A stretch of 64,000 nucleotides of DNA, from NCBI GenBank assembly GCA_010405405.1, contig MU004241.1, positions 1,337,942 through 1,401,941 of the forward strand. The letters are read 5' to 3'. This DNA comes from Microthyrium microscopicum (taxonomy: Eukaryota). The translations under genes were made by a program, and so were the position numbers. Each line of letters starts with the position of its first letter. Positions within the stretch are counted from its first letter, which is position 1. Below, in pieces: positions 1 to 64,000 of this stretch. The notes under the pieces are model-generated. The model was not told the origin of the DNA. It was given only the letters and a program-made list of their open reading frames with translations, and did not search any database.

Positions 1-376
1 TAATCTATAACCTATATATAATAATACTCGTCTTAACGAGCTCTATCTAATGGTGTTACTTATATTATTATAGCTAGCCTAATTAGGAAGTTATTTTAAA
101 AGTCATTTTAGTAAAATAATAATTGCTGCATCTTAATGGCTATTAGGGCTAGGGTAATATAAATTACATAATAATATAGCCCTAATCTAGGGCTACAAAA
201 TGGCATTTAAATTACACGCTAGGCCCTACTAGGAAGTAAAATAATAATAGAAACGTTTTTAATCTAATAATAGTAGACTTATAGAACCTGCCAGGACCTG
301 CCAGGACTTATAGAATTCCTTAGGACTATTAGGATATCTCCTCTTCCTAAGCTAAGCTTAACTTTTGCCAATATAA
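1..376. mobile_element. Right end of a RIP-degraded TIR DNA element, same family as 37674-38469; left part lies outside the window
   Basis: 1-376 aligns by eye with ~38104-38469 (e.g. tcttaacgagctctatctaat, tagggtaatataaatta). Similarity ends at aacttttgccaat, which matches the TIR of the complete copy. Confidence 0.65.
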
Positions 377-3300: not shown

Positions 3301-6300
3301 TTAAAACTACTAGAATACTTTTAAAATATAAGTAATAACGTCTTTAGATTTAGGTTTATAAATAATATTATATTAGTTATATAGAGTAATACTACCTAAG
3401 AAAACTATATAAGACTAAAAAAAGCCTACTAGAAGTATACTAACTAGATAAATAGATATAGTATAAAGTTTATCTTTAATAAGTATTAAGTAATATACTT
3501 TACTTAGAATATCTACTACCTAGAAGTAGACTTATAATTTATAGTAATAATAGATAATATATCTACTAAGCTTATACTAAAGAGTATTAAGGTACTAAGT
3601 ATATAAATAAATAGAAAAATAAACTAGAAAGACTATATTAAAAAGACTAAAACTAAAGGATTTAAGTAAGTAGTAGTATTTTTAAAAATAGCGTAGTTAA
3701 GATAAAAACTAGTCTTTAAAAAGATAAAGCTTCTCTATATAGTAGTTATTAAGCTAACCCTTATATATAAAGTATAAGTATAGGGTTTAAGATTACTATT
3801 CCTTAAGGCGCTAAAGAATTATTATAAACTACTAGTAGTAATTTAAAATAATATACTTTATAAAATAATAAAAAAGTACTAAAAAACTCCTATTACTTTA
3901 TTAAATAAAGAAATAGGAGTTAAACTACTTTAGATAAATACTATAATTTTAGTAGAAGAATATACTAATAAGAATAAAGACTTAATAATAATATAAAAGA
4001 TAAGTAAAATTATTATTAAAGTATACTAGGTAAACCTCCTAAGGAACTAAAGAATACCTCCCTAGTAGTAATAACTAAAAAGCTTAGTAATACTTAAACT
4101 AGTATAGATATATATAACTAAGGTTATAACTTAAGGAATTAATATACTAAAGTAATAAAAAAAAAAATTAGAGATAAAGTAAAAGTAAGATACTAACTAT
4201 AGGTAAGTAACGTAACTAATAAATAGTATATTACGAAAGAAGAAGAAGGTAAAAACTAAACTAGAGCTAGAAATATTCCTAATTAGGATATATTATTATA
4301 AGCTCTAGATAGATACTTAGATAAGACTTATAAAGACGTAGTAGTATACTACTATAGTATTACGAATCTACTACTATTAATCCTATTATAATATTATTAG
4401 TATCCCTTATTACGTAATGCTAAGGGCTTAGCGCCTAAGGATTATCTAGTATAGCTTACCTATAACTATTTTTTACCTTCTTTCTTAGATTCTTTATATT
4501 AGTTTTCTTAAATTATATCTATTATTAACTTATACCCTTATGCCTATAAGTTCCTAATATAAAACTAATACCTTATACTATTTAAAAAATAATCTTAATT
4601 TTTAATATATTAAAATCTAAAAATTTAATACGTCTACCTATATAAATATAAAATCCTATTTTTAGATTTTAGTAAATCTAACCTACTAGTATAATAAATA
4701 CGTAAATTCTTAACTCTTAACTTTACTAGAAGCTTAGACTCTTAGTATCTAATTAAAGGGCTTAAAGAACCCTAATTAACTTAAAATTTCTACTCTACTA
4801 AACTTATAAGTTAATAATCTTTCTTTACTACTATTACTTCTCTTTACTACTATACTTATAGTAAGACTTTACTTATTCTATTATACTATAATAAGCCTTA
4901 AAGATAAACTATAATAAATTAGACCTTCTACTCTTTTCTCTAAATTATCTATTATACTTTTATAATCTATCTATATTTTATCTTAAGACTTCTTAGTATC
5001 TACGTCTATTACTTATACTTACTCTATATTAAACCCTTATCTTACTATAAGAAATATTATTAAGACTTATAAAACCTATTCTACGTCCTATCTTTATAAG
5101 TAATAGTAATTAAAGACCTAGAATACTACTTAATCTATAATTATACTACCTTATACTTAGACTAGAATTAATAGTAATAAAGATAATACTATAATAGAAC
5201 TACTTTATAACTAACCTTTATACTATAATTTCTTATACTCTTATTATAGCTCTATAGCTAAGGCACTTCTACTATCTAATATCTTAAAAATTACTAAGAG
5301 TAGCTATATTTATAGCTAATTATAATTCTAAAATAAAGGTAAAGAAAAGACATTCTTTACTAATCTTCTAATTGCTATTTTTTAACTAGTAAACTAAGCT
5401 TAGATTAAAGAATTACTATTAAACTACTAAATATCCTCTTATCTTATTACCTACTAATTAATTATTCTTAATAAGAAGAATTAAGTACTCTTAGTATAAC
5501 TTTTTTATAAAAAAATTATCTTCTAAGCCTAAAAAACTATCTTTTTAAATAATACTATTAAAAGTATTTTTCTAAACCCTATACTTATATATTATACTTA
5601 AAATAACTTATATTTAAAAGTTATTAAAACTTATAAAGAATTCCTTTATAGCGTTACTATATTACTAGAAATATAGTTTAAATAGCTATATAGTTATATT
5701 AAATTAGCCTAAGTAACTAATCTCTATACTTAAAAGACCTATACCTAACTAAATAATATAATAAATGCCTACTAATACTATAAATAAAATATTAAAGATA
5801 TAACTAATAAACTTAATAATACTATAGTTATAGCTAATAAAGTACGTATAAAAATAGATTAACTTTACTAATAACTTAACTATATAATTAAAACTAACTA
5901 TAAAGATAATAAACGCGTTTTTTATTTAGAGAACGCCTATAATATAAATTAATAAGAACTTAATAAAGTACTTAATAATATTAAATAACTACGTACTTCT
6001 TATATTAAGAAGTATAATAAAATTATAACTCTTTACCTTTAAAATAAAGATCTTAAGAACTAGCTTAGTTAGTTTATATATAAGTTTAAAAAGAATATCT
6101 ATTAACTTAATTCTAATAATAAATAAGTAATGCTTTTTCTTTATTAATAAGTTCCTTATATTTAAACTAATAGCCTAACCTTAGTAGTATCTAGATCCTT
6201 AGCTAGTAGTAAAAGTAAGAAACGTAAATAGAATAATTTAAGTAAATACTTTAGTTATAACCCTAAATAATATTCTATATAAAAGCTTTATATTAAAGAC

Positions 6301-17700: not shown

Positions 17701-19475
17701 AAAGTCTATCCTCTAACTCTTAGATTTAGTAGCAAAGATTAATAACTAACTCGCAATATTATATATTAGTATTATACTTCTTTACTAATTTAATAAAAGC
17801 TACCTATTTATTTAAATAAGTAGTAGTTAGTACTACTTTATAATCATAGTAGACTTAGCTAATTAGTACTTTAAGATCTATTATTATTTACTAATAGGTA
17901 GCTACCTCTTCTTATAGCGTATCTACTATTTTACTTAATTAACTTACTTCTACGTTAGTATCTATAAGTTCTTTTACTAGCTAGTCTTAAAGCTTTTGAG
18001 CGGACTAATATCGTAAGGCTATAGTTTAATTAACTAATAACGCTATATATAGTTATTTAAAGAATTAATCTTCTTTTATAAACTTAATATATTAATCTAG
18101 GTGCTTACTATTAGATATTAATGCGTAATATTTCTAGAGAGTAGTAGAATTATCTAGGTTCTTCTAGAGGACTACTAGTATCTATTTCTCTATTTTTAGT
18201 TCTACTTTATATAAAGCCTATATAAATAAAAGCTTTATATTAGTAAGCAATGCGACTTTACTATTAAGGTCTACTAGTTCTAAGGATAGGTAAGGTAGGA
18301 ACGATATAGGAACATTATAAAGTTCTTTTTTACGTGCTAGTAATTCTAACTAACGACAGATATTAATAAGTAATCTTGCTTCTAACGCGACTTTGTCTAG
18401 ACTATTAATAACGGCACTAGAGGTTACTACCTCTTTGCCTTTTAATCTTAGCTCTTTTGTTACGCTTACTAGCGTAATAGGTACTATGGTTAATAGTCTA
18501 GCAATAATCTTATAAGGTTATTAAGGGTTAATACTAACTTAAGTGTTTTAATAAAAGAATTCCTTATTATTATTGTCTAAAGCTACTTCTAATAATAGTA
18601 GTAACTTTTTAATAGATTTAATTAATAGGATGTTCTCTTACTATAGCGTTAATGCGATAGTTAACTATTAATTAGTTTCTATATCTAGGACGACTAGCTT
18701 CTTAGTAAAATAGCTATCTCTACTATAGTAGGGTGAAACTAAGCGGCTTTAAATACTAATACTACTATGCTTACGGGCAATATAAGAGTTACTTAATGTT
18801 AGTTTAAGACTAGGGATATGTAGCGCTTTACTTATAGTAATACGTAGCTAAATAGTGTAGTATTTCTTAATAAATTAGAATTAATTTAATAGATTAATAG
18901 ATACGGATTTAATAAGAAATAAGGTAAGTATATTTTATAGTTAGTAGAGAGGAAGTAGTGTAAACGCTTCTATGGATCTAAGAAGAACACTATAGGGCAA
19001 AGCTTAGGCCTTTAAGTAGTCTTTATTCTAGTAAATAACGCTAAATTTGCGTTATTCTAGTTAGTGTTTATAAATTTGCTAGTACTTTTAGCAACGCTAA
19101 TTCTAATTAAGGGCAGTATTGCTAAATACTAATTAGTTAGATCTATAGCACAACTACGATTAAGATAGGAATTAATAAACGCCTCTACGCGTTTATTAAT
19201 GATACGTAAATATACGTAGAGCGTAAAATTAATGTAGAGGTACTTAGATTATATAAGGAGCTAATAGGCACGATTAGGTAAGCAGAAAGTAGCTAGTATT
19301 ATAGGATCTAAGTACGGAAAGAAGAGATCTAGAGATATAGCTATAGATACAAAGAAGTAGAGGCTTAGGATATCTTTAGACACACTAACTTCAAACGAGA
19401 TAAAGAGATCTTATCTATAGGATTAGATCTTAGCATCTAAACACTATAATACTAAACTTATAAGGATTCCTTATA
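11769..19475 (-). mobile_element. Ty3/Gypsy LTR retrotransposon family A copy 1, full length (7707 bp), RIP-degraded; 224-bp LTRs at 11769-11992 (3') and 19252-19475 (5')
   Basis: Direct LTRs tataaggagcta...ggattccttaca (ancestral TG...CA); TSD ctaat (11764-11768 / 19476-19480). Reverse complement of the purine tract (acttcctccctt) abuts 11993. Body is the reverse complement of 45559-53238. Confidence 0.92.
12047..12088. repeat. (CTAGT)n/(CTAGG)n pentanucleotide run in the 3' UTR of Gypsy A
   Basis: ctagtctagtctagtctagtctaggctaggctaggctagtct; degenerate counterpart at ~52921-52960 in copy 2. Confidence 0.8.
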
Positions 19476-22400
19476 CTAATATATAGCGTAAAGAACGTTA
19501 TAAATTAACTAACTAATTAAACTCTATAATAGTCTTAATAAAGTATAAGTAATAGTACTTTTCCTTATATAATTAGAAGTTATTAGACTTAATAACTAGC
19601 TATATAGTATATAGATACTAATAATGCTTCTACTATAGTACTTATATAGCTACTAGTAATAAATAGTTTACTATATACTACTAAACTACTTACTATATTA
19701 TAAAGAAAGAATACTAGAATAAGTAATAATACTAAATAAGGCCTATATACTTTCTAATTTAAGAAATACCTAGGTAGTAACTAGATAGCTACTAAAGAGT
19801 AGAGCTCTTTAGTAATTTAGGCTAATTAAAAAAATTATAGAAATAGACTTTAAAGTATATAGAGAACTACTAAGACTTAAGAATCCTATAAATAACTAAT
19901 TATAATATTATAGTACTAATAAGTTAGTAATATATAATTATAAAAGAAATAGCTAAGTCTAAGAATATAATTAATTTTATTTTATATTTATCTACTACTT
20001 TTTATTAAATAATAATATTACTCTACTTAATAACTAGAATATCTCTACTAGTATATTTATTTTTATACTTTAAGTATAAAGCTTTAGTAAAATAGCTTAT
20101 AAGTAAGCTAAATCTTTATCTAATATAGATATATTAATCTTTAGCTTTTTCTTTTTTTACTATATTAGTAAGACTATAATAAAAGTAAACTAGACTCTAT
20201 AGCTAATAAACTTACTTACTAAACTATTTATAACCTTTACTTATTTAGTAGCCTTTTCCTTATTACTTAATAATATACTCTCCTTTATATTTTAATAAAT
20301 ATTAACTAAGTTAGTTATTACTTTATTAAAGGTACGTTAAAGGTATTTATCTTACTCCTTTAACTTTACTAATACCTTACTATAATATTAAAAAAAATAG
20401 AAAATTAAGAGTAAAGATATACTTATAGCTTTATACTTAGACTTCTACTCTTTATAATAAAAGTAAAGACGTTAACTAAAGCTAGCTTAACTATAGATAT
20501 AAGTAATTACTATAATAAGTATACTAAAACTAATTAGGTATTTACTATTAAGTAACTCTACGTAATAGTATAATACTTAAAGATAGTATAAATAAATTCT
20601 TATATTAAGAATATATATAGTCTATATTATAATAGTTAATATTATATATAAAAAAATACTAAAAAACTTATAATAAGAGCTAAGATAGGACTAGCTAATT
20701 TTATATTTAAAGATAGAGTAAAATTTTTAATATCTATAAATAAAGTAGTTTTTATCTTCTTTAAAGATAATAGAAGAGAGATACTTATAAGTATAAAATA
20801 TTTACTAGGTATTTAAAGGTAAAAGAAAGAGAAGAAAGAAAAGCTTATAAAGGACTTATCTTTAAAAGAGGACTTAAAGAGAGTAAGAAGTATAATAGAA
20901 ACTTAAAGAGGAAGAAGTAACTAAAACTATATAAATTTAAAATACTTTATATTCTAGAAGTAAATTATATAGACTACTAAAAACTTAAAAGCTACTATTT
21001 AGTAACCTATTATATAATATTAAAAAGTATAAATTAATAGAGAAAACTTAGTTAAGAAGTATTATAAGTACTCTACTTAATAGATATTAAAAGAGAAAGC
21101 TTAATATAGCTAAAGAATATTATAATACTAGAGCTTATTAAGAGTAGAAATTAATTATAAAAACTTAAGAATATATATTATATATATCTATTATAAAACT
21201 ATATAGAAAGTTAACTATATAAGAATAATAGTTATAAGCTTCTAAAAAGAAGAAGATTAATAGAAACTTATTAAACTATAATAGTAAAACTTAATAATAA
21301 GGTAATACTAAATAGAAATAGGTACTAAAAAGCTAAATTTAACTTATTTTAAGAAATACTATAGCCTTAAGTAATTAAATAATAGATAAGTTCTAAAAAG
21401 AAAACTAGTAATAAGAATAGTATTAAGAATTAAGATTCTAGCGTATAGTATAGAATCTATATAATATATAGTATATTTAAGCTATATAGAGCCTCTAGTA
21501 GTTAGTAACTACTAGTTACTTACTATATTAACCTACTAACTAGAATTTCTTTAGTAAGCTTTATAGTTTATAAAGAGATAATATAAGTCCTTTTATTTAG
21601 AAGTAGTAAACTAAAAGAATATTATAATAATACTAGAATAAGGCTACTAGAAGATAACTAAAGGAATACTATAGATTTCTTTATAAGGGTTTTTCTAAAA
21701 GTAAGAGTAGCGTCTATATAGCCTATTAGCATAGCTAAAAGATAATAAATAAGATTTATATATAGTACTTTTCTTTCTAAGATACTTATAATATACTTAA
21801 ATAGTACTTTTATATAAATTTATAAAGTTATAAAAACTATAGTAATAGTAGTTAACTTAAATAGCTTTTCTAAAACTAAGATAAAGTTATTTTATATTAT
21901 AAACTCTTTATATTATTTTATTATTATAAGAATACTCTAATTAAAAGAGTAGAATTCTTTTCTAAACTTTAAAAATAAGACTTTTATATAAAAGTAACTT
22001 TTTAATAGCTTTTATAGTAAAATTAAGATTATAAATACTAATAAGTTCTTTAAGTTAGCTTAGAATAGTTTATTCTAACTATTTAATTATTTAGTTAGGT
22101 TACTAAACCTAAATTTACTTATAGAAGAGCTTTTAAATAAGTATTTATAGTTTACTAATACTTTTAGTAAGTAAAATATATTTAAACTAGCTTAATATAG
22201 TCTATAAAACCTTAAGATTAACCTAAAGCTAAGTATAATAATACTATATAAACCTATTTATAGCCTTTTAAAGGCTAAGTTAGTTATTCTATATAAGTAC
22301 TTAAATACTTACTTTATAAAAAGTTAGATTTAAAAGTCTAAATTTCTTATTAAAGCCTTTATTCTCTTTATAAAGAAAAAAGATAGAATATTATAACTTT

Positions 22401-24399
22401 ATATAGACTACTAAGGCCTAAATAATATTATTATTAAAAATTAATATATATTACTTTTTATTAAAAAGTTTTTAGATAGACTTTAAGATACTAAATTTTT
22501 TACTAGTCTTAACTTATATAAAGCTTACTACTATTTATATATTAAAAATAGTAATAAGTAGAAAACTACGTTTAAAACTAAATATAAAATATTTAAGTAT
22601 ATAATAGTTTTATTTAGACTTATAAATACTCTTAGAGCTTTTTAAGTATATATTAACTAAATATTAAGAAGCTTAATAAATATAATATATATTATTTACC
22701 TTAATAATATTCTTATATATTCTAAAACTAAGAAGTAATATATTAAAAATATTTAAGAAGTTTTATAGTAACTTATAAAATACTATTTATATATAAAACT
22801 ATTTAAGTATAAGTTTTATACTAATAATATAAAGTATCTAGATTATATTATAACTCTAAATAGTACTACTATAAATTAGTTATAAGTTAATATATACCTA
22901 AATTAGCTAAAACTATATAATATATATTGAATAAAAAAGTTTATTAGCTTTATAAACTATTATTATTAGTTTATTACTAGATTCTTTTATATTATTATAC
23001 TACTAAATACTTTAACTTAAAAAGAACTAAGTTAGGCTCTAAAAAGCCTAAAGTTATAATAAGAGAAGTCTATAAATATTAAATTACTACTAAACGCTTT
23101 AGATTCTTTTAATAAACTAAAAGATTCTTTTATAAATATACTAATTTTAGCTTATTTTAACTTTATACTTTCTATATAATTAGAAATTAATACTTTTAAA
23201 AGAATAATTTATAAAATATTAAGCTAGAAATAGTATAATAAAAGCTAAAATAGCTTATAAAAACCTATTATATTTTATTCTTAGAAATTATCTCTACTAA
23301 AGAATTACTATAAAACTTTATAATAAAAGTTCTTAGTAGTAATTATAGATTTCTTAAAAGTATTTAGAAAGTACTTATAAAGCTTATTAGACTAATTTTA
23401 AGTCTTAATAGACTATATAAACCTTAAATTACTTAAAATAATACTAAAAATATTATTAATATATATAAAGTAAGTAGATTTACTCTTAAAATATAATTTT
23501 AATATTAAGTACTACTTAAGTAAGATAAATTTAGCTAATAAACTCTTAAGATAATTAGACTATATTAAAAAGAGCTAAAGAAAATAGAAAAAGATTATAA
23601 AAGTATTACTTAATTTACTTTATAATAAGTTATAACTTAATAATACTTTTATAGCTAAAACTAATACTATTAAACTTATAGATTTTATTATTATATATAT
23701 TAATATTAATATATAGTACCTTATTATAAATTAATTTAAGAAAAGTTAAAATAAGCTTATTAAGACTTAAAAATATCTAAAAATAAGTTTTAGTAAGATT
23801 TTAGCTATTAATAAATCTCTTTTAGTTAAGAATAACTTAGATAAAGCTAAATAAATAAGTAGAAATCTTATTTTTATTAAGGAAGAGTTATAAAAAAAGA
23901 AAATCTTATAAAGGTTTTATAATAATACTATAAAAAGTAGTTATAAAAGGTTAAAAAAGATACTTAAGAACATTAAGTACTATTATACTTAAAACTATAT
24001 TTAGAAAGACGTTAAGAACTATTATAAGGCTTATTTTAATTATTAATATAATAAATCTATTAAATAAGCTTAAAAAGAATTATTAATAACTTTACTAGTC
24101 TTAGAAATACTATAAAAGGATTTTATTATAAATTTTATTATAAATTTACTTTTAAGTATCTATAATAATTAAACTTATAACTTTATTATAGTAGTTATTA
24201 ATAAGCTAACTAAAATAGCCTACTATATCTTAATAAAAAAGAATATAGATATAAAGAATCTTATAAAAAATTTTTTATAAAAGATTATATATCTATATAG
24301 TATACTTTATACTATTATATTTAATTAAGAACCTCTCTTTATTTTTAAGTACTAGAAAATATTCCTTTATTATCTTTTTATCTTTAGAAAGCTTTTTAT

Positions 24400-25591
24400 T
24401 ATTATTAAATCTTATTTATTGTCTTTTAGCTACGCTAATAGGCTATATAGACGCTACTCTTAATAAGCGGGTAAAAACTCTTATCTAATTAGCTAATCTA
24501 CCTAAATCTAGCTAAGCATAGCTTGCTCTAAGCTTAAGGCTTAGTCTAGCTTTAGCTAATCTCTATATATTTAGCAAACTAAGGCGCTAACTATATAAGG
24601 GAAAACCCTGCTATTATGTTCTATAGGCTAATCTATACTAAGGCCATTAATACTATACTAAGCTCTATTAGCTTCCTAAGCTACAGAAGCATTAATAAGT
24701 TAGGTAAGCTAAATTCTAGGTAGTATCTAACCACAGCACCTCTCTAGGCTAGTATCTATTACGGGTAATTATTCTTCCATTTAGTCTACTGCTTTAAGTT
24801 CCTACAGTTGCTAATATTGTCGCCCTATAGGGCTAATTCCCTCCTTATTATTATATTAGATCCCTCTATTTATACCGTAATACTAAGTCTAAGGTAGCGC
24901 TAACAGTCTACTAAAAGCTATCCGTTTACGCTATGCTTTATTTTTAAGCCAAAATCTAGATCCTTCGGCTTAGCGTATTTTAGGTTACCTTCCCTAAGTC
25001 TACTAGCTTATTCCTATAGCGCTATATTTATGCCAACCTAAAAGCACTGTACTTACTAAGCCGTAATGTCCTAGATTCCGTAATTTATTACCGTATCGTT
25101 TAGTTTAATCTTTGCCTTCTGCGACTAGATTTTGGGCTTACTAAGCTAAGGCTACTCGTCTAATCTAATTACTAAGAGCCGTAAAAGAATTAGCTTTAGT
25201 ATGCTGAATTTACTACGCTTCAGTAATGTTATAGCTTATTTAATGTAGCTTTACGTAGTAGCTTGTTTCTAATTATATAATTTTAACGCTAGTTCGTTAT
25301 TAGTTAATAGGGCTTTAATAAGAATGATCTTGTAACTATATATAGCGGTCACGTAATGCAAAAATTCATACCTTTCGCAATATATTAAAAAGAGCTATAG
25401 CTTGTCCTCTACACTTACTAAAAAGGGAAGGATAACCTTTCCTAAAAAGTAGTAAACGTAGCTTTAAAAGTAAGTAACAATTGCCTTTTTAGGGTAGTAG
25501 GGGAGATAGGAATTAAACCCGTGCCCTGCGGATTCTTAAACAGGTAGGGCCTGCTATAAGATCGCAAGTACTACTACTATACTACTCCCTC
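24400..25591 (-). mobile_element. tRNA-headed SINE copy 1 (~1.19 kb), inserted in the Gypsy C integrase region
   Basis: 17-19 bp TSD (tc)tttagaaagctttttat at 24381-24399 / 25590-25608. Minus strand begins with a tRNA-like head containing GGGTTTAATTCC (RIPed B-box). It ends with the 57-nt LINE-shared tail (24406-24462) and (TAA)n. Confidence 0.88.
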
Positions 25592-27563
25592 TTTAGAAAG
25601 CTTTTTATAATATTTTATTTATAAACTAATAATTAAATAAAGTACTTAAATTAGAAAATTAAGTACTATCTATAAATTTATAAGTATTAAAAATAAGATA
25701 ATTAGGTAAGATAGCTTAGTTTAGCTAAGTTTAACTATAATAATAGTATTTACTTATTAACTAGAATTACTTCTTTTATTATATATACTAGAAGGAACTT
25801 CTATACTCTTAAATTAACTAAAATATTATTAAAAAGTATTATACTTAATATTAAAGAAATAGTAAACTATATTCTATCTTTATAATATATAATAAAAAAT
25901 AAATTAGCTAAAGTATAGTTATATTAAGCTAACTAGTATAATAAAGAAAAAAAAATATTTATTTAAATATTAGTAACTAAGTCTTACTTAATATAAAAAA
26001 TATTTAGACTACTTATATTAAAAAGAAACTTAATATTAAGTATATAAATCTTTTTAAAATCTTAAAGATTATAAATACTAATACTTACTAACTTAATTTT
26101 TTAAAGAATATATAAGTTTATAATATATTCTATATTTTTCTATTAAAGTTATATATATTAAATTCTTATTTTTTATAAAAGTTTATATTATTATAGAATT
26201 TCTTAAACCTAAAAGACTTAAATATATATAATATAGAGAAAGTAATAAAGTATATAATAAATAAAAAGAATAAATATTATTACTTTATAAAATAGAAAAG
26301 TTACTTAAAGTTAGAATTAATCTAAAAGTTTATAGCTAATCTTTCTTTAACTACTTTAAAACGCTATTATATAAAGTTAGCTAAAAAGAATATTATATTA
26401 ATAATAAGTATAATTAAAAAAGTAATTAAATATAAAATAATATATCTAGATAATATTATAGATAAGTTAATAAATTTTAACCCTATAAGACTAAAAAGAT
26501 AGCTTAAAAAGCTAAAGAAGACTTAAAAGACTTAAAATAAGCTTTTAAAAAAGAAGAATAGTTACTTTATAATTTTCTTACTAATTAGAACTTAAATTAA
26601 CTCTTTAATATATATATTATAATAAATTAACTTAAAATAACTTAAAAATAATATTAGATAATAAGTATATAAAAAAACTACTAAGTCTTAAATATATAAA
26701 TTAACTTAAAATAATATATAAAATAAGTTTTTATATATATAGAAGAAGTACTTTTTTAAGAACTCTTTTTAATATAAAATAGGGTTAAAATATATATTAA
26801 AAAATATATAAAAAAATAAGTAATTTCTAACTAAGAGTTAAATTAGTTATATAATAGTTTTATAACGGTATTTACTAATAAACCTATTTTTAAGAAGTCT
26901 TAAAAGGATATTTACTAACTAACTTATTTTTAAAAGATATAAAATAACTTAATATAATAAGAAATAGCTCTACTTAGCTAATTAAGACTAAGTATAAATA
27001 ATACTAAATTCTAAAAGATTTAAAATAACTTATCTAATCTTATTTTAACTTAAAAAGAAGCTACCTAGTTTTATTTACGCTTTTTTAAAGTAGAAGTTAT
27101 AACCTTAATTTTAGAATAGTCTTTATTAATATAACTATCTTTATAAAAAGCCTTAATAGCTTTTTTAATATAGTTCTTAATCTTATTATACTTAGAAGTA
27201 CTAAGATAGGCTTTATAGTACTTAAAAAGTACTTAAAAGTTTATAAAGATGCTAATTAGAGTTTCCTTAATATTAATAAATTATTATAAAATAATTAAAT
27301 ATAAAGTAACCTATTATAAATATAAAAAGACTTATCTAAAATATATTAGATTCTTAAAGATTAATAATATATATAAAATCCTTATATTAAGAATATAATA
27401 TATTATAGTACTTAAAGTACTTAGAAGGATAAAATTAAATATTAGTAGCTAAGAGAACTAGATAAGTTATAATATACTTCTTTAATTCTAAAGAGCTATT
27501 ATTTACTATTTTTTAAGTAGCTTTAGTATCTATATAGTAGTTAATAAGTATATAAGTTATATA

Positions 27564-29469: not shown

Positions 29470-29737
29470 ATATTAGAAACTAGAATACTTCTAATTTAAG
29501 ATAATTACTAATAGAATACGTTTATATAAAATAAAGCGTTATTAGTAAGGTTAACTAATAATAACCTATTATAAATATAAATAGCTTAGTAAAGTTCTTA
29601 TAGCTCTAAGTAATAAAGAAGAAAGATTATAAGGATCTAAGTAACTCTCTAATAATTACTCTTATTCTTATTTTTATATATCTATTTAAACTATAATAAT
29701 TATAGTCTTTACCTACTTAGAATAACTCGTTTCTAAT
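29470..29737. mobile_element. Fragment homologous to the internal part of the 28-bp-TIR element (family D); probably extends further left
   Basis: 29470-29737 aligns with 45515-45558 joined to 53244-53467 (e.g. aataaagcgttattag, aaactataataattatagt). This is the empty-site version without Gypsy A. Confidence 0.7.
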
Positions 29738-32700
29738 AGTCTAATAATAATAATTAATATAAAGATTCTTTAAAGATTTTCCTTCTTACTTATTCTTTTC
29801 TTCTTTTTTATATTAGAACTATTAAAATACTTTTAAGATATAAATAATAATGTTTTTAGATTTAGCTTTATAAATAATATTATATTAATTATATAAGGTA
29901 ATACTACCTAAAAGAACTATATAAGACTAAAAAAAGCTTACTAAAAATATACTAACTAGGTAAATAGATATAATATAAAGTTTACTCTTAATAAGTACTA
30001 AGTAATATACTTTACTTAAAATTTACTACCTAAAAATAAACTTATAATTTATAGTAATAATAAATAATATATTTACTAAGCTTATATTAGAGAGTATTAG
30101 AATACTAAGTATATAAATAAATAGAAGAATAAACTAGAGAGATTATATTAAAAAAACTAGAACTAAAAGATTTAAATAAATAATAATACTTTTAAGAATA
30201 ATATAATTAGAATAAAAACTAATCTTTAAAAAGATAAAGCTTCTTTATATAATAATCGTTAGGCTAACTCTTATATATAAAGTATAAATATAAAGTTTAA
30301 GATTATTATCTCTTAAGGCGCTAAAGAATTATTATAGACTACTAGTAATAATTTAGAATAATATACTTTATAAAATAATAAAAAAATATTAAAGAACTCT
30401 TATTACCTTATTAAATAAGGAAATAAGAGTTAAGCTACTTTAGATAAATACTATAGTTTTAGTAAAGAAATATACTAATAAGAATAAAGACTTAATAATA
30501 ATATAAAAGATAAGTAAAATTATTATTAAAGTATACTAAGTAAACTTCCTAAAAAACTAGAAGATATCTTCTTAGTAATAATAACTAAGAAGTCTAATAA
30601 TACTTAAACTAATATAGATATATATAACTAAGGTTATAACTTAAAAAGTTAATATACTAAAATAATAAAAGAAGAAATTAAAAATAAAAAGAAAGCAAAA
30701 TACTAATTATAAATAAGTAATATAATTAATAGATAGTACGCTATAAAAAAAGAAGAAAATAAAAACTATACTAAAGCTAAAGATATTTCTAATTAAGATA
30801 TATTATTATAGGCTCTAAATAAATACTTAAATAAGACTTATAAGAATATAATAGTATACTATTATAATATAAAGAACATTATAAATTAACTAACTAATTA
30901 AACTTTATAATAGTTTTAATAAAGTATAAGTAATAATACTGTTTTTTATATAATTAAAAGTTATTAAACTTAATAACTAGCTATATAGCGTATAAGTATT
31001 AATAATATTTCTACTATAATATTTATATAACTACTAATAATAAATAGTTTACTATATATTATTAAACTACCTACTATATTATAAAGAAAAATTACTAAAA
31101 TAAGTAATAATACTAAATAAGGTTTATATACTACTCTTTAATTTAAGAGATATCTAAGTAATAGCTAAATAGCTATTAAAGAGTAAAGCTTTTTAATAAT
31201 TTAGACTAATTAAAAAAATTATAGAAATAGACTTTAAAACGCGTAAAGAACTATTAAAACTTAAAGATTCTATAAATAACTAATTATAATATTATAGTAT
31301 TAATAAACTAATAATATATAATTATAAAGAAAATAACTAAGTCTAAGAACATAATTAATTTTATTTTATATCTATCTACTATTCTTTATTAAATAATAAT
31401 ACTACTTTATTTAATAACTAAGATATCTTTATTAATAAATTTATTTTTATACTTTAAGCATAAAGCTTTAATAAGATAGCTTATAAGTAAACTAAATCTT
31501 TATTTAATATAAATATATTAACCTTTAGCTTTTTCTTCTTCTACTATACTAATAAAGCTATAATAAAAGTAAATTAAGCTTTATAGCTAATAAACTTATT
31601 TACTAAACTATTTATAACTTATATTTACTTAATAGCCTTCTTTTTATTACTTAATAATATATACTCTTTTATATCTTTATAAGTATTAATTAGGTTAGCT
31701 ATTATTTTATTAAAAACGTATTAAAAATATTTACCTTACTTCTTTAACTTTACTAATATCTTATTATAATATTAAAAAAAATAAAACAATAAGAGTAAAA
31801 ATATACTTATAGCTTTATACTTAGACTTTTATTCTTTATAATAAGAGTAAAGATGCTAGCTAGAGCTAACTTAATTATAAATATAAGTAATTACTATAAT
31901 AAGCATACTAAAACTAACTAAATACTTATTATTAAATAACTCTATATAATAATATAATACTTAAAAATACTATAAATAGATTCTTATATTAAAGATATAT
32001 ATAGTCTATATTATAATAGTTAATATAATATATAAAAGAATATTAAAGGACTTATAATAGAAACTAAAATAGAATTAGTTAATTTTATATTTAAAGATAA
32101 AGTAAAGATTTTAATATTTATAAATAAAATAATAGTTTTTATTTTCTTTAAAGATAATAAAAAAAAAGTACTTATAAGCGTAGAATATTTAATAAATATT
32201 TAAAGGTAAGAAAAAAAGAAGAAAGAAAAGCTTATAAAAAACTTATCTTTAAAAAAGGACTTAAAAAAAGTAAAAAATATAATAAAAACTTAAAAAGAAA
32301 AAAAGTAACTAAAACTATATAGATTTAAAATACTTTATACTTTAAAGGTAAACTATATAGACTACTAAAAACTTAAAGGCTACTATTTAGTAGCCTATTA
32401 GATAGTATTAAAGAATATAGATTAATAAAAAAAAACTTAGTTAAAAAGTATTATAAATACCTTATTTAATAAGTAGTTAAAAAGAGAGCTTAATATAGTT
32501 AAAAGACGTTATAATACTAAAGCTTATTAAAAGTAAAAATTAATTATAAAAACTTAAAAATATATATTATATATATCTATTATAAAACTATATAGAAAAG
32601 TTAATTATAGAAAAATAATAGCTATAAGTCTTTAAAAATAAGAAAATTAATAAAAACTTAGTAAACTATAATAGTAAAACTTAATAATAAAGTAATACTA

Positions 32701-33158
32701 AATAGAAATAGATACTAAAAAGCTAGATTTAATCTATTTTAAGGAACGCTATAGCTTTAAGTAATTAAGTAATAGATAAGTCTTAAAAAGAAAACTAATA
32801 ATAAAGATAGTATTAAGAATTAAGATCTTAATATATAGTATAAAATCTATATAATATATAATATACTTAAGCTATATAAGGCTCCTAGTAATTAGTAACT
32901 ACTAATTACTTACTATATTAATTTACTAATTAGAATTCCTTTAGTAAGCTTTATAGTTTATAGAGAAATAATATAAGTCCTTCTATTTAGAAGTAATAAA
33001 CAAAGAGAGTATTATAATAATATTAGAATAAGGCTACTAAAAAGTAGCTAAAGAAACACTATAGGTTTCTTTATAAGGGTTTTTCTAAAAGTAAGAGTAG
33101 CGTCTATATAGCTTATTAGCGTAGCTAAAAGATAATAAATAAGATTTATATATATATA
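29738..33158 (+). mobile_element. Tad-like LINE copy 2, 5'-truncated inside RT
   Basis: Aligns with ~3226-4357 plus 19487-21761 and lacks the Gypsy B insertion (empty site ~30862-30870). Ends aagattta(ta)n. No clear TSD found. Confidence 0.85.
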
Positions 33159-36100
33159 ATAAATTCTTAGCTAATAATAAGTATAAAGTAAATAATAAGT
33201 AAAATAATTTTAATATAGTATTATATAAAATTAGTTATTAGCTAATTAAGGAATAATTATATTAGATCTTTCTTTTTAAATATAAGTTTTTTTAATAATA
33301 CTTTAATTCTTCTTTATACTCTTATAAGTAGTAATTTTAAGTTATCTTTTTATTTTTATATTATTATATTTTTAATATAAGTAGTTTTTATAGTAATAAT
33401 AGCTATCTACTATAAACTTTTATTTATTTTTATAGTGCTAGCTATTACTTATATTTAGTTAAAAGTTATATTATTATAATAGTTTTAATAAGATAAATCT
33501 AATTATAATAGTTTTATAAAATAATTCTAAGAAATTAATCTTTTAGTATAATAATACTTTTAAATTTATTATATAATACTACTTTTTTAAGCTATAAAGT
33601 ATATTTTTTATATTTATATTACTTATTAAACTTAGTTTTAGAACTACTTTACTTACGTTCTAAATATTATAGTAGCTTATAAGAGTCTTAGTTTTTTTTT
33701 TTTAAGTAAGTAAATTATAATTAACTTTCTATATAGACTAAAGTTTTACTTAAATAATAATATTAGTAAAATTATTACTAGTTTTTTAAAGAATATACTT
33801 TATAGAGTTTATTAATATTATTATACTTAGAAGTATATACGTCTAGTATTAGCTTTTATTATTTTTTATATTATATTCTAGTTTTATATAATATAAAATC
33901 TCTAATAGTTTTTTAAATAAGTAAGCTTATTTTTTATTTTAAATAAGATAGTTATAAGTTTTATTATTTAAGCTATTTTTAATAATTTACTATAATTACT
34001 AGTTAGTATTATATTACTTATTTAATAATCTAAATTACTTTAATATATAAATAGATTATACTAAAATTTATTAACTTTCTAGTTAATAGTTTCTATATAT
34101 AGCTTAATAACTTCTCCTTTAAGTAATATTTAAAAGTAATAATAGATCTACTAAAGTTTATTAAAACTATTATTTAGCTAGCTAAATAAGTAGCTAGGTA
34201 GTTTATATTATTATAATACACTATACTTTAAAATATATAAATACTATTAGAATATAAGTTAATTCTTTAAAGATCTATAAAAACGTTTAAGTCTTTATTA
34301 AAGACATAATATTAAGAATTAAACTTACTAGATTCTCTAAGATAGGTATTATAGTCTAAGTACTTTAGTCTAATTACTATTAAAAGCTAGTAAAACTACT
34401 TTTTTAGTTCTAGTATATTTTATAGTTAAGGAAACTAATAAGTTCCTAACTATTATAATTAGTAACTAGGTATAACTTCTAGGTAGCTTAGCTTATAAAT
34501 AAACTACTTTAACTTAGAAAGAAACTTTAGAGATTTTTAAGTAATAAAATAGAAACTAAGAAATTTCTAAGTAGTTTTTTAGTAATTACTTTTATTTTTA
34601 TTTCTATATATTTAATTTATTAAGTATATTATAATCTTTTTATTTACTTTATAATACTAATCTCTAATACTTTTCTATTTAATAGAAAAAGAGTATTTAT
34701 TTTTATAAGTAGTCTTTTTTAAACTACTATTAGCTTAAAAGAGTATATATTTATAATTACTTTAAAAACTATTTTAATATTACTTTATATAGTAGCTATA
34801 GTCTAAGCTTTAATAAATAAAAAAAGAACGTTTTATTTAATAAAGCTATTAATATAAGTAACTTTACTTATTTAAAAAATAGAAAGTAAACTATAGTAAT
34901 ACGCTAGTAAACTATAAATTATTATATTTAGTAGCTATGTTTTATATATAATATTTAGAAGTAGAAGTATAGAAATAACTCTTTTAAAGTTATATAGATT
35001 TAGAAAAGTAAAGTTTAAATAAATAAAGTAATTATTTAGAATTAATACTTAGTACTAGTTTACTAAGTAAAGTAGAGATTTTTTAGTTTACTACTTAAAC
35101 TAGAAACTACTTAGCTTAATTTAGATTAGTAAAACTTAATTTAAAAGTACTAGATAATATTCTAAAGTATTCTTTTAAATTATAACTATCTATTTAAGTA
35201 TTATATAGTAACTTACTTTTAATAGAAATTAATATTAGTAAAATAGCTTTACTATTTATAGTAATTTTACTATATATTAAAATATAGTTATAGTTACTTT
35301 TTTATATTACTACTTTTACTTCTTTAAATTTTTACTACTTTATATAAAAGTAGTATTTAGTTTTATAGTACTACTTAATTAAAAAGCTCTTTTTATTAAT
35401 ATTAATAATTTAGCTTAGCTAGAACTAATATTTTAAGTAAGTATTTTAAAGCTATTTTTATAAGTAAAAGTAATATTTATATAATAGCTTATTATACTTA
35501 CTAATACTAAGTAGTAATATACTACTTATTAACTTTTATAATTACTTATTTTTAATTAACTTTAGATAGTTACTACTTTATAAGCTTCTTTTTCTATTAA
35601 AGAATAAAATTAGAAAGCTAGAAGTTATTTAGATTTTACTTAATTAAGTATTCTATATAAGTAGTTATTATTATAAAAAAAGAAAGTAATTTTCTAGCTA
35701 ACTAGGCTTTAATTTAGTTTAGTAGCTTTTTTTCTTATACTATAGTTAAGTATATCTACTAGTTTTAGTAATAATTAAAGGAAAATATATATTCTTTATA
35801 GTAGTAAAAATATAGCTTTAAGTAAAAGTATATATAAGTAACTTCTAATATATTACTATTTAAATTAGTAAGTATTTTTTATATTATAGCTACTAATTTA
35901 GATAGGTTTTCTATAATTATTTCTAAATCTAATAGAATTATATATAAATATTAAATAACTTTCTAGGAGGAGTAGTATAGTAGTAGTACTTACGATCTCG
36001 CAGTAGGCCCTACCTACTTAAGATCCGTAGAGTATAGGTTTAATTCCCGTCTCCTTCACTACCCTAAAAAGGTAATTATTACTCGCTTTTAAAGCTATAT

Positions 36101-37657
36101 TTACCCCTTTTTAGGAAAGGTTATTCTTCCCTTTTTAGTAGGTATAGAGGATAAGCTATAGCTTTTTTTAATACGTTATAAAAGGTACAAATTTTTATAT
36201 TACGTAACTATTATATATAGCTATAAGATTATCCTTATTAAAGCCTTACTAACTAATAATAGACTAGTATTAAATTATATAATTAGAAACTAGCTACGTA
36301 AAGCTATACTAAAATAAGCTATAATACTACTAAAGTATAGTAAAATTAGCATACTAAGATAACTTTTTTATAGCTCTTAGTAACTAGATTAAAAGATTAG
36401 CCCTAGCTTAGTAAGCTTAAAATCTAGCTATATAAGGCAAGATTAGACTAAATAATATAGTAGTAAATTATAATATCTAAAGATACTATAGCTTAATAAG
36501 TATAGTACTTATAAGTTAGTATAAATAGCGCTATAGAATAAGTTAGTAAACTTAGGGAAGGTAACTTAGAATATACTAAGCTAAAGAACCCTAGATCTTA
36601 GCTTAAAAGTAAAGCATAGTATAGTAAATAGCTCTTAGTAGACTAATAGCATTGCCTTAGATTTAGTATTAAATAGTAAGAATAAAGAGATTTAATATAA
36701 TAATAAGGAAGGAATCTTAGCCCTTTAAGGAATAATAATATTAGCAACTTTAAGAACTTAAAGTAGTAGACTAAATAAAAGAATAATAACCTATAATAGA
36801 ACTAGCCTAGAGAAGTGCTAATAGGCTAAATACTCTCTAAAATTTAGTTTCCTAACTTACTAAAGCTTCTATAGCTTAGGGGGCTAATAAAGCTTAGTAG
36901 AGTATAATATTAGCCTTAGTATAAATTAGTATATAGAATACGATAGTAAGGTTTTTCCTTATATAGTTAGTATCTTAGTTTACTAAATATATAAGGGTTA
37001 GCTAAAGCTAGACTAGGCCTTAGGCCTAGAGTAAGCTAGCTTAGCTAGATTTAAATAGATTAGCTAATTAGATAAAGGTTTTTACCTACTTATTAAGAGT
37101 AGCGTCTGTATAGCCTATTAGCGTAGCTAAAAGACAATAAACAAGATTTAATAATAAATAACTTCCTAATAAAATAAATAGTACTAGTAAATATTTTAGT
37201 TTTTTTTACTAAAAAGTACTATTTTAGCTAACTTTAAAACTATATATTATAATAATAAACTAATAAATAATTCTAAAAACCTATAGGATCTATAAGCTAG
37301 TACTAAAGAATAGTTTATCTAAATTTAGCTTTCTTATAGCTTATATTTAAATAGTTATTTAAGTTTAAAATTATAAAGTTATTTCTTTTAGTAAAGTATA
37401 CTAAGAAATTCTTTCTAGTCTAAATTTTAGTAAAGAATACTAGACTATAACTTTAAAGCTATATATCTAATAAATAAAGTAGTTTAAAAGTAAATTAAAA
37501 AATAAATTCTATAATTTAGTACTTTTTAAAGCTATTTTTATTTAATCTTAAAGTAGAGACTTATAGTTATTAAATAATAAATTATTAAAGTTAGCTATTT
37601 TTAGTAAGAAATATAGTTTATTAATTAGTACTACTTATTTTATTATAGACTTAATTA
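33159..37657. repeat. Unclassified RIP-degraded sequence, interrupted by SINE copy 2
   Basis: Very AT-rich with TpA excess; no termini or protein motif I could recognise. Confidence 0.4.
35966..37154 (+). mobile_element. tRNA-headed SINE copy 2 (~1.19 kb)
   Basis: 14-bp TSD taaataacttYcta (35952-35965 / 37155-37168). Head 35966-36058 has A-box-like TAGTATAGTAG (35973-35983) and B-box-like GGTTTAATTCC (36037-36047). LINE-shared tail at 37094-37150, then (TAA)n. Reverse complement of copy 1 along its length. Confidence 0.88.
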
Positions 37658-40451: not shown

Positions 40452-40683
40452 GGGGCCGGCGATTGGCGATGCAATCTCTATCATTACTAAAAATTGAGTG
40501 CATCCACAGAATCGAGTTCTAAAGTCTATGAGTATTATGCCGAGCTTAGCAATCCCTATTTACCCGTTGCTGTGTGCATACCTATAAAGCTACATAACAT
40601 GAAAATCGAAGCCCGGCTCAAATATGCGTACGAAATTAGCTATTACTATGCCTCCGTGGGAAAAAAAGAGCGGATACAAATGA

Positions 40684-55058: not shown

Positions 55059-55288
55059 GGTATCAGAGGGTGGGGCAGGCAGAGAAAAATATAGACTTGA
55101 AATCAACATCCAGATGCAACTTTAGAACGGTCGCTTGGATACCCTTTTCAAATGGTCAAGTCTAGTACGGAAAAGCAATGCTACCTTCTCTTGAAGCGAG
55201 CCAATAGTTTGCATGTAGTGACATTCAGTTTGGAGATATATTAGGCTAGTGCACGTACCGAAAGCATCTATTTCGGATGTCGTAAACG

Positions 55289-58944: not shown

Positions 58945-61425
58945 CAGTACATTTACTAAAAAGCGCCTAGATATTTACTAGAAAGCGCTAGAGCCAATAA
59001 TCCTATACAGACTATGCCTAAATAGGAAATTAATTAAATATTATTAGTGTAGAGCCTATAGAATTACGTGTTCTAGCTCTAATATTCTTAAAGTATAGAA
59101 AGATTAACTCTATTACTACAGACAAACGCTATAGGACTAGCCTAGAATATTAACTTTCTTAACTCTATTTTTACGCCTAAAATACGTTCTAAAAGAGATC
59201 TTATCCTACTATTACTTATTACTATTTATATACTCTCTTGTAGCTAATTTCTACTATATCTTAACCTTATTTTTAGTAGTATTACCTACGTTCTAGCGGT
59301 CTAAAGGAGGGTCGTTCTAGAAGCTATTAAGATTGCTATTAGGGTTATTTTTACTTCTTTAAAGTTACTATTATCGTTATAGTAGTAGTAGTTAAAGTAC
59401 TAATAGTACTATCTTATATAGTTATCTTAATAGTAGTAGTAGTAGAAACTAGCGTAGGAATTAGTACTAATACTACTAAAGCTATAGATCTAGCTTCTAT
59501 ATAGTAGAGCTAGCGTTCTAGCTCTATAATCTAAGTATAAAGTATAGTATTATTAATATTTTTAGGAAGCACTAAAGAAGCTATAGCTAAAGATAAGGCT
59601 ATAGTAATTACTAGACACTATCTTTTAGATATAGGACTACTTATAGAAGTAGTTAGATTAACTATTAAAGCCTCTATAGTAGTAACTATAACTTATTACT
59701 ACTTAGTAGTATATTATATATACTAATCCTTATCTATAGTTAAAAGATTAATGAATTCTACGTCTAGTACTATAGCTATAGCTCTAGCTTCTTTAACATT
59801 ATAATCTATAAGTACTAGTAGCTTAAATTAAGATAGGATTTAACTTAAAGGAGCCTATAGACGTTAATTAGGTTAAAAATAAGACTAAGAGGGCTATCTA
59901 CTAGTAGATACTTAAAGTAAAGGTAGAATCTATAGTAGTAGTAGTAGTAGCTATAGAGTAGGACTAATAAAAAGTACTAGAGGTTAAATATATAGCACTC
60001 TAGATTAAATTTAATTATAATACTAATATAGATTAATATCTTCTTACTAAAGCTACTATAAAGTATTCTAGAATAGATATTTCTTAATTATATAACTATA
60101 AAGTAATCTATATATTAAATTAAACGTTTTTAAGTATTCTATAGTTAGTTAAGTACTAGTAACCTTTTTTTACTATTTTTAATACTACTTTGTAATTAGC
60201 TTTAACGCGTAGGAACTAATATAGTATAAAGACAATTAGTAGAGAATAGGAAAATATTAAGTCTTTAATAAGGAATCTTTCTTATTAGAATTAAGCTAAG
60301 TAATTCCTTTTAAGTACTTAACTTAATAGTAGATAGCTTTACCTAAGGAATCTACTATCTTTAATATATTACTAGTAGGAGTAATCTATATCTTTAATGT
60401 ATTATAGAGGCTTTCTAGTAATAATATTATTATAGTATTAAAATATTAGAATCTATAAATAAAAGTAGTATATAATTTCTTCTTAAATAGTATTTAGGTA
60501 TTAATAAGATATTTAATAAATCTTAAGTCCTTAATATCTATAAATTAGCTTTTTATAGTATTCTAAGTAATATCTAGAGCTTTCTTAGTAGGAATATTAA
60601 TAACCTATAGATTTATTAGTAAAATAACTATTAGAAGAGCTAAGAGTAGCTTACCTCTTACTAAAGTAAAAGTACTATATTTTAAGATCTTTAAGTAGTA
60701 TCTCTACTCTCTTAATTTAGTATAAAATTAGTAGTTTTTTATATCTCTCTAATCTTCTATTTAATATTCTTACTATAGTAGAATTAACATATAAGCTATA
60801 GAGTAGGAATAGTAGTCTTAAAAGTATTTTTAAGTACTTTATATTAGTTTATAAATATAATATTTAAAAGTTTAGTTTTAGGCTTCTTTATAAGCTAATT
60901 AAACGTTTCTAAAGCCTATTTATATTTCTTTTTATCTTTACTTATTATAAAACAGAAAGCTATAGAGAAGTATTTATATATAGTAATAAATACTATAATA
61001 TAAAACATTAGTATTTTATAGTAATTTATTTTCTATATAGTATTAAAGAGTAAGATATTAGAATAAGCGTAATAAAGAGTAATTATAGACTTTAAAGTAA
61101 TAAAAAAAGATTTTAGATATTCTTATTTAAGTTAAATTCTTAAGATAAACTTATTATATAATTTTAACTTATTTAATATATATTCTAGTAGTATACAACC
61201 TACTAATTATAATATTCTTTTAGCTTAATTTACGTTATAAACGTCTTTAATATTAATATTAATTCTAGAATACTATAGATAGATTTTATTAAGAATCTTT
61301 ACTAGCTAGTTATTAGCCTAATAGAGAACATTAATTTTAGCTTTAAAGTTATTTATATAGAGAGTATATTATTAATAAGTAGTAAAGACATATAATTTAA
61401 TTAGAAAGTATAAATATTTATAATT
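58945..61425. repeat. Unclassified RIP-degraded sequence, probably a transposon, at the right border of the cluster
   Basis: Abrupt rise in AT/TpA. Short direct repeat atttacta(a/g)aaagcgc twice at ~58950-58988 resembles a terminal structure; family not identified. Confidence 0.45.
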
Positions 61426-64000
61426 ATATATAAATCTTATTTATTGTCTTTTAGCTACGCTAATAGGCTATATAGACGCTACTCTTACTTTTAGAAAAAC
61501 CCCTATAGGGAAACCTATAGTATTCCTTTAGTTACCTTCTAGCAGTCTTATTCTATTATTATTATAATATTCTCTTAGTCTACTACTTCTAAATAAAAGA
61601 ACTTATATTATCTCTCTATAAATTATAAGCCTACTAAAAGAATTCTAGTTAGTAGGTTAATATAGTAAGTAACTAGTAGTTACTAACTACTAGGGGCTCT
61701 ATATAGCTTAAGTATACTATATATTATATAGATCCTACGCTACGCGTTAAAATCTTAATCCTTAATACTATCTCTATTATTAGTTTCTCTTTTAAGACTT
61801 ATTTATTACTTAATTATTTAAGGCTATAGCATCCTTTAAGATAGGTTAAATCTAGCTTCTTAGTACCTATTTCTATTTAGTATTATCTTATTATTAAGTT
61901 TTACTATTATAGTTTAATAAGTTTCTATTAATCTTTCCTTTCTTAAGGACTTATAGCTATTATCTTTATATAGTTAACTTTCTATATAGTTTTATAATAG
62001 GCATATATAATATATATTTTTAAGTTTTTATAATTAATTTCTACCCTTAATAGGCTCTAGTATTACTATAGCCCTTAGCTATATTAAGCCCTCTCTTTTA
62101 ATACCTATTAAGTAAAGTATCTATAATACTCCTTAGCTAAGTTTTTCTTATTAATTTACGCTCTTTAATACTATATAATAAGCTACTAAATAGCTATCTT
62201 TAAGTTTCTAGTAGTCTATATAGTCTACCTTTAGGGTATAAAGTATTTTAAATCTATATAGTTTTAGTTACTTCTTCCTCTCTAAGTTTTTATTATATCT
62301 TTTACTCTTCCTAATTCCTTTTTTAAGAGTAAGTCCTCTATAGGCTCTCTTTCTTCCTCTCTCTCTTACCTTTAGGTACTTAGTAAACGTTCTATACCTA
62401 TAAGTATCTCTTTTTTATTATCTCTAAAAAAGGTAAAAACTATTTTATTTATAGATATTAAAAATACTACTTTATCCTTAGATATAAAATTAGCTAATTC
62501 TATCCTAGCTTTTATTATAAGTTATTTAGTATTCTTTTATATATAGTATTAATTATTATAATATAAACTATATATATTCCTAGCATAAAAATTTATTTAT
62601 ACTATTTTTAAGTATTATACTATTATATAAAGTTACTTAATAGTAAGTACTTAGTTAGTTTTAGTATACTTATTATAATAATTACTTATATTTATAGTTA
62701 GGCTAGCCCTAACTAGCGTTCTTACTCTTATTATAAAGAGTAATATTCTAAGTATAAGACTATAAGTATATCCTTACTCTTAATCTTCTACCTTTTCTAA
62801 TATTATAATAAAGTACTAGTAGAGTTAAAAAAGTAGAGTAAGTACCTTTAATACGCTTTTAATAAAGTAATAACTAACCTAGTTAATCTTTATTAAGGTA
62901 TTAAGGAGTACGTATTATTAGATATAAATAAGAAGGCTACTAAGTAAGTAAAAGTTATAAAAAGTTTAGTAAGTAAGTTTACTAGCTATAGGGCCTAATT
63001 TACTTTTACTATAGCTTTACTAATATAGTAAAAGAAGAAGAAGCTAAAAGTTAATATAGCTATACTAGCTATTAATTTAGCTTATCTATAAGCTATCTTA
63101 CTAGAGCTTTATACTTAAAGCGTAAAGATAGATTTATTAATAAAGATATCCTAATTATTAAGTAGGATAGTATTATTATTTAATAAAAAGTAGTAAATAG
63201 ATATAGAATAAAATTAATTATATTCTTAGACTTAGTTATTTCTTTTATAATTATATATTACTAGCTTATTAGTATTATAGTATTATAGTTAGTTATTTAT
63301 AAGATCCTTAAGTTTTAGTAGTTCTCTATATATCTTAAGGTCTATTTTTATAATCTTTTTAGTTAGCCTAAATTACTAAAGAGCTCTACTTTTTAGTAGC
63401 TATCTAGCTATTACCTAGGTATCTCTTAAATTAAAAAGTATATAAGCCTTATTTAGTATTATTACTTATTCTAGTAATCTCTCTTTATAATATTATAGGT
63501 AGTTTAGTAGTATATAATAAACTATTTATTACTAATAACTATATAGATACTATAGTAAAGAGATTATTAGTACCTATATGCTATATAGCTAGTTATTAAG
63601 TTTAATAACTTTTAATTATATAAGAAAAAACGCTATTACTTATACTTTATTAAGATTATTATAAAGCTTAATTAGTTAGTTACTCTATAATATTCTCTAT
63701 ACTATAGTAATATATTACTATATCTTTATAAGCTATACCTAAGTATCTATTTAGAGCTTATAGTAATATACCCTAATTAGAGATATTTCTAGCTCTAGTT
63801 TAGTTTTTACTTTCTTCTCTTTCTATAACGTACTATCTATTAATTATATTACTTATTTATAATTAGTATTTTACTTTTACTTTATCTCTAATCTCTTTTT
63901 TTATTATTTTAGTACGTTAACTTTTTAAGCTATAATCTTAGTTATATATATCTATACTAGTTTAAGTATTACTAAGCTTCTTAGTTATTATTACTAAGGA
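61426..64000 (-). mobile_element. Tad-like LINE copy 3, 3' part; continues beyond the window
   Basis: Reverse complement of 19487-21761 and ~4070-4357; shared tail at 61431-61487; lacks the Gypsy B insertion (empty site ~63700). Confidence 0.88.

Follow-up and report, generated by a model that had tools for sequence, protein, structure and literature searches.

Two SINE copies and their surroundings

The window, a 64,000-nt stretch of Microthyrium microscopicum DNA (GCA_010405405.1, contig MU004241.1, 1,337,942-1,401,941, forward strand), holds two SINE copies among pieces of a resident LINE (Table 1). The two ~1.19 kb copies named in the original prediction were recovered at the same places and are 81% identical over 1202 aligned columns, differing mostly by transitions (187, against 39 transversions, flanks included). 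In filamentous ascomycetes, changes at CpA and CpG are typical of repeat-induced point mutation (RIP), and copy 1 has lost 99/112 CpA and 145/174 CpG targets relative to L017, one of three intact copies elsewhere in the genome. From L002 and L003 it differs by only 0-3 transversions.

Table 1. Features of the SINE copies and of the partner LINE in the window
Feature	Position	Strand	Remarks
SINE copy 1	35966..37154	+	heavy RIP damage; in a young subfamily together with L002 and L003
Left TSD, copy 1	35952..35965	+	14 bp
tRNA-like head, copy 1	35966..36061	+	A box, intron-like insert, B box 36037-36047, CCA relic 36059-36061
Post-tRNA hairpin domain, copy 1	36062..36293 (end approximate)	+	conserved; four T5 runs
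Middle of body, copy 1	36294..36949 (limits approximate)	+	variable, non-coding, mosaic among copies
Pre-tail segment, copy 1	36950..37093 (start approximate)	+	conserved; predicted long hairpin; fifth T5 run
LINE-shared tail, copy 1	37094..37150	+	57 nt, then (TAA)n
Right TSD, copy 1	37155..37168	+	14 bp; one C/T difference from left TSD
SINE copy 2	24400..25591	-	RIP-mutated; mosaic haplotype other than that of copy 1
Upstream TSD, copy 2	25592..25608	-	17 bp, or 19 with two head bases included
Downstream TSD, copy 2	24383..24399	-	
Partner LINE, 5' part	373..4357	+	split by nested insertions; RT region 2359-3768; found by blastn to a full copy
Partner LINE, 3' part	19472..21764	+	tail 21702-21758; adjoins the 373-4357 piece in element coordinates
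Partner LINE, 3' 3.4 kb	29733..33155	+	tail 33092-33148
Partner LINE, 3' end	61425..64000	-	full-length copy leaving the window; tail 61431-61487; 14-bp TSD

Both long TSDs of the original prediction, different in sequence and length at the two sites, were found again. Copy 2 sits in a repeat, and in a paralogue of that repeat the target is present a single time, representing an empty site. The last 57 nt had been said to match the ends of three LINE copies, and in copy 2 they do so at 55-57/57 positions (E 1e-21 to 1e-24), with the first of these LINE tails belonging to the copy whose 5' part lies at 373-4357. For copy 1 the identity to the LINE is 96% across the 57 nt and 86% when 79 nt are compared. 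The tRNA head was likewise borne out by Rfam family RF00005, which scores 34.8 bits in copy 1 (cut-off 29) and falls just short in copy 2 (27.1 bits). ARAGORN called no tRNA anywhere in the window and called the head in 2/6 SINE loci tried. The predicted (TAA)n ending holds for the SINE, since 16/19 SINE ends run into (TAA)n or (CAA)n, but does not extend to the LINE, which ends in (TA)n in 27/27 copies having an end.

Elsewhere in the window, positions 39301-43120 and 53968-57081 form a gene island in which two transporters are encoded, one of the MFS and one of the SBF family (ACR3-like). Further island ORFs, without a Pfam match, are presumably ArsH-like and rhodanese/ACR2-like, and the island is probably an arsenic-resistance cluster. 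A 7.7-kb LTR element at 45559-53255, present again at 11769-19475, divides the cluster.

Head, body and copies of the SINE family

Collecting copies genome-wide, as the original prediction had proposed, yielded a family of at least 21 (40/49 candidates scored, the remaining rows being tail-only matches). Sixteen are full-length (1182-1218 bp, TSDs 13-19 bp) and five are incomplete through truncation or gaps. The full-length copies have TSDs and begin at the same 5' position in 16/16 cases, one of them ambiguous inside a TTA microsatellite. The unit that inserts starts at tRNA position 1 and ends in a short simple repeat. L017, L018 and L020 are nearly unmutated (GC 0.52-0.55) and served as intact references in place of a consensus. 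L020 lies antisense within a dead Gypsy pol gene, while L018 sits between two frames of a HET-domain gene, which it interrupts and whose spliced RNA it has joined; these sites mark both as late insertions.

The head occupies nt 1-97 and comprises a perfect 7-bp acceptor stem, a D arm, a T arm, a discriminator A and an encoded CCA, with a hairpin insert at the anticodon-loop position and a fold z score of -3.1. The A and B boxes are intact in L018 and L020, the A box of L017 carrying a G>A change. RF00005 scores 50-52 bits for the three intact heads, and in these loci Rfam returned the tRNA clan alone, with no match in the body; a tmRNA label covered only the tRNA-like domain, lay below the cut-off and was rejected. 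In the search for a parent tRNA 63/1518 candidates were scored. Of 22 host tRNA-like loci compared with the head, an intron-bearing tRNA-Ala(TGC) came top over the whole length and in each exon, whereas the insert was best matched by another intron-bearing locus of this set, L127, which we take to be tRNA Glu-TTC and ARAGORN calls Leu. The similarity of the insert to the Ala and Glu introns has p 0.008-0.02 with limits chosen by eye, and two further pattern searches added no candidate. The simplest source of the head would be an end-matured, unspliced pre-tRNA, that is, an intron-bearing, CCA-added molecule that may have supplied an Ala-TGC-like 5' half and a Glu-TTC-like insert and T arm. Viral contigs searched with the head motif gave 0 matches. 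In another repeat family, unrelated to the SINE, RIP-damaged tRNA-like stretches of 71-72 nt (L143-L146) also exceed the RF00005 cut-off.

Behind the head, nt 98-330 form a conserved hairpin domain of ~230 nt (z -2.6 for nt 98-240) with four T5 runs. In the three intact copies T5 runs lie at nt 144, 168, 201, 228 and 1130, one of the five directly behind a hairpin, and T6 never occurs. The notion of a structured body in general was dropped: L020 has an overall z of -3.0, but its strongest window, at -4.4, reaches only -0.8 in L017. Among 18 copies, transversion-polymorphic columns number 7/300 in nt 1-300, 53/700 in nt 301-1000 and 2/200 in nt 1001-1200, in bins whose limits were set after looking and of which the middle one may be inflated by indels. 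RIP-type changes affect 39/228 sites of nt 331-1140 in L018 and 32/227 in L017, against 0/53 of nt 98-330 in each, a contrast that nominal p values overstate given the patchiness of RIP; in heavily RIPped copies nt 98-330 are struck as much as elsewhere. Subgroups differ internally by 0-8 transversions, and copies are mosaic, with informative-site incompatibility in 53/207 near pairs and 344/874 far pairs (permutation p 0.001). These patterns would fit constraint on 330 nt at the 5' end and 200 nt at the 3' end, between which the sequence drifts and recombines.

The ~1 kb body was described from the outset as unexplained, and it matches neither the LINE, other genomic DNA, Pfam nor Rfam. It could be a captured and decayed protein gene, or an LTR-element fragment of strong-stop origin, and an encoded CCA is indeed what a tRNA primer would leave. 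The captured-gene check, however, came back empty: the three intact copies share no long ORF in six frames, Pfam returned 0 families for the body in six frames, indels between copies break frames, and the body search found no second genomic source (20/20 matches were SINE copies). The element is non-coding, and either origin is a very unlikely account of the body.

Several individual copies deserve mention. L021 (G000:C13:1105508-1105684) is an unmutated, 5'-truncated copy of 177 nt that ends in (CAA)n, has a 14-bp TSD and lies where GC content is normal; its flanks on both sides are present in run X2 (see below). L006, L007 and L009 are SINE copies with a LINE-type (TA)n end rather than (TAA)n, two of them, L007 and L009, being members of the most divergent SINE subgroup. 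At L015/L186 (G000:C4 near 1714200-1715900) a 5'-shortened SINE appears, by eye, to have inserted into a LINE copy, within its initial 25 nt, which dates some SINE activity after the insertion of that LINE.

The partner LINE and the shared tail

The partner LINE is 7.1 kb long and has at least 25 copies with TSDs of 12-19 bp. A profile of eight LINE copies led to P0001, a 1060-aa protein with APE and RT domains (E 1e-41), which maps back onto 8/9 LINE loci and onto the RT region in the window (tblastn, E 1.5e-28). The resident LINE of the original prediction is therefore a real one, with TSDs and with an APE endonuclease and RT in ORF2; P0001, the closest protein match, is without an RNase H domain. 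A Pfam search of 12 RIP-damaged LINE frames (stops as X) gave 0 families and a PDB profile search gave 0 matches, the frames being too degraded, and it was the protein profile search that settled the identity. The last 2 kb of the LINE (e.g. window 19600-21700) lie past the end of ORF2, and a stop-codon scan of five copies, a weak test under RIP, found no open frame there.

All 30 LINE loci examined are RIP-saturated. A search with the unmutated tail gave 40 matches and no intact LINE, and among the 109 matches of a genome search with RVT_1 the four open-frame loci that were read are three Gypsy-type elements and one unrelated ORF, again with no intact partner. Since every LINE copy examined has been killed by RIP, the SINE family is probably left without a working partner in this strain. 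Separately, the Gypsy-type elements L122, L123 and L125 retain long open gag/pol frames in an otherwise RIP-saturated repeat set.

A shared 3' end with weak similarity out to 79 nt could also be read as the trace of an internal deletion derivative of the LINE that gained a tRNA head. The check was run by RIP-aware alignment of the SINE against five full LINEs on both strands, in which the tail scored 105-109 (5/5) and the 1043-nt body 49-73, at the level of shuffles (61-98), with a positive control at 1502; only the tail is thus common to the two elements. Relatives of ORF2 gave no tblastn match on the SINE, and every match of the body search, as noted, is a SINE copy. A deletion derivative of this LINE is refuted, and the original reading withstood the test; as an account of the element in general, such a derivation is extremely improbable.

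A SINE/LINE pairing, on the other hand, is highly probable, with TSDs of 13-19 bp in the SINE and 12-19 bp in the LINE and nothing but the last 57 nt in common. No stem-loop was supported in the tail (z 0.1-0.6), with 0/8 pairs compensated in four near-identical sequences that offer little variation. A scan of metagenomes with the tail motif gave one match, attributed to chance. At L152:1090-1175 (G000:C2 near 840100) the tail occurs by itself as a 70-bp insertion with a 10-bp TSD and a (TA)n end, 47/51 identical to the SINE tail, its similarity beginning at the same place as that between SINE and LINE. This insertion lies behind a DEDDh_C (PF21762) gene and before an ORF with a similar RGG-rich end, and is present in run X2.

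Transcription, mobilisation and comparison with known systems

The tRNA-like head together with the same 57-letter end as the LINE makes the SINE a parasite of that LINE. Taken as a whole, the element is very likely a tRNA-SINE-type non-autonomous retroposon, and the first reading of it as a SINE with a LINE-shared tail is upheld by the tRNA-related head, variable TSDs, non-coding body and common tail. The ORF2 protein of the LINE would recognise the 57-nt tail and copy the SINE RNA by target-primed reverse transcription. Against this stand the absence of a supported tail stem-loop, the different terminal repeats of SINE and LINE and the failure to find an intact partner ORF2 in the searches above. 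Typical SINEs had also been said to be much shorter, and the element does lie far outside the 100-600 bp given for SINEs in PMC5063351.

The 5' junctions bear on the RNA that was copied. Extra bases occur at 1/16 SINE and 12/16 LINE junctions (p 0.0002; 21 locus-consistent LINE end pairs, of which 5 with no or weak TSD were left out), and in 8/16 LINE junctions a G stands next to the start. An untemplated G has been attributed to the cap (PMC3287187), and the clean SINE junctions suggest an uncapped SINE RNA, although a head beginning with five G makes an extra G harder to spot. The 5' end may thus have been uncapped from the start or trimmed at G1 by RNase P.

Pol III seems somewhat the better candidate as maker of this RNA, most likely acting from the internal A and B boxes, with the weak T5 terminators being read through in part. 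Plain Pol III transcription is doubtful given the five T5 runs, one behind a hairpin. In budding yeast 4-5 T act as weak terminators, and adjacent hairpins strengthen them (10.1101/2021.08.27.457903). That T6 is never reached in the intact copies, when 12 of 16 host tRNA genes called have T6 or longer within 40 nt, speaks for Pol III; that 3 of the 16 have T5 only speaks against it.

The same T5 runs and the 1.2 kb length speak for an RNA that Pol II makes, from a cryptic promoter or by reading through from the host, and that RNase P cuts at G1, with the boxes kept only for the tRNA fold. RNase P cutting would likewise give clean uncapped 5' ends, an AATAAA is present in the tail, and Blumeria Eg-R1 offers a precedent with internal T runs (PMC6022598). 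Eg-R1 is, however, described there as lacking A and B boxes, which are intact here, and intact copies never contain T6. Run X2, taken as RNA from two spliced introns with GT..AG joints, places L018 inside spliced HET mRNA, and L018 RNA thus needs no promoter of its own. L020, by contrast, occurs in RNA contigs without a host gene: one X2 contig has 39 differences, exactly the L020 count, where L017 would give 58. L017, with its altered A box, did not turn up in X2, but absence cannot be established from contigs. Thirteen contigs were placed for X2 against 166 for a DNA run, and contigs show neither ends, strand nor level. An apparent chimeric junction at L018:1835 in X2 proved to be a chance match of 23 nt with an unrelated gene, and coverage in run X6 was too thin to use, its 4 contigs (depth 2-4) all falling within the element and being identical to 0/18 copies. 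On balance, a Pol II origin is rather unlikely.

Returning to Pol III, the CCA would block RNase Z, and RNase P would read the acceptor stem and T arm. A speculative extension, which we hold with little confidence, is a built-in attenuator: the hairpin/T5 domain behind an unspliced, CCA-ended tRNA mimic would yield mostly short RNAs, few polymerases would make the 1.2-kb mobile RNA, RNase P would trim it at G1 and the CCA would keep RNase Z away. The 5' third would then be spared RIP by selection, by template switching from short RNAs or by Pol III shielding. Intact, transcribed SINE copies beside RIP-dead LINE partners provide a ready test system for the upper length of a Pol III retroposon, for T5 terminators in filamentous fungi and for the escape of part of a repeat from RIP.

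Few fungal SINE/LINE pairs were expected to have been described, and indeed two are catalogued in the table of PMC3747384 and one more in PMC5063351. A literature search that took in few subscription papers and no supplements found no paper on the present family or on intron-retaining fungal SINE heads. Mg-SINE with MGL/MGR583 in Magnaporthe and SINE2-1_BG with Tad1-24_BG in Blumeria are, as here, tRNA-derived SINEs sharing a LINE 3' end (PMC3747384), but Mg-SINE is 472 bp (PMC5063351) and the element here ~1.2 kb with an internal T5/hairpin domain. AfuSINE2-1a, paired with I-4_AO / I-1_AF in Aspergillus, is alike in its tRNA head, TSD, Tad-LINE-like 3' part and trinucleotide end, and in its printed head, by eye, A and B box are likewise far apart, while the main text of PMC5063351 makes no mention of an intron; by its description it differs in being 370 bp, with an (ACT)n end and ~125 nt of LINE-like tail (PMC5063351). 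Eg-R1/Egh24 of Blumeria comes closer in length (700-900 bp; PMC5063351) and in its internal T runs and AATAAA, and the conserved T5 domain recalls it, but it is described as Pol II-transcribed and without A and B boxes (PMC6022598), whereas the present element combines a complete tRNA fold with a LINE tail.

The best reading would be a tRNA-SINE/LINE pair of the Mg-SINE/MGL kind, longer and terminator-laden, which appears to be set apart, judging by the descriptions of known families, by its length, by the retained insert with CCA and by the conserved T5 domain. The present analysis adds the contrast between SINE and LINE junctions, signs of constraint across nt 98-330, the mosaic make-up of the copies and an RNA contig assigned to L020. 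As a system it is the familiar parasitism of a LINE by a SINE, here with an unusually long element that carries apparent polymerase stop signals.
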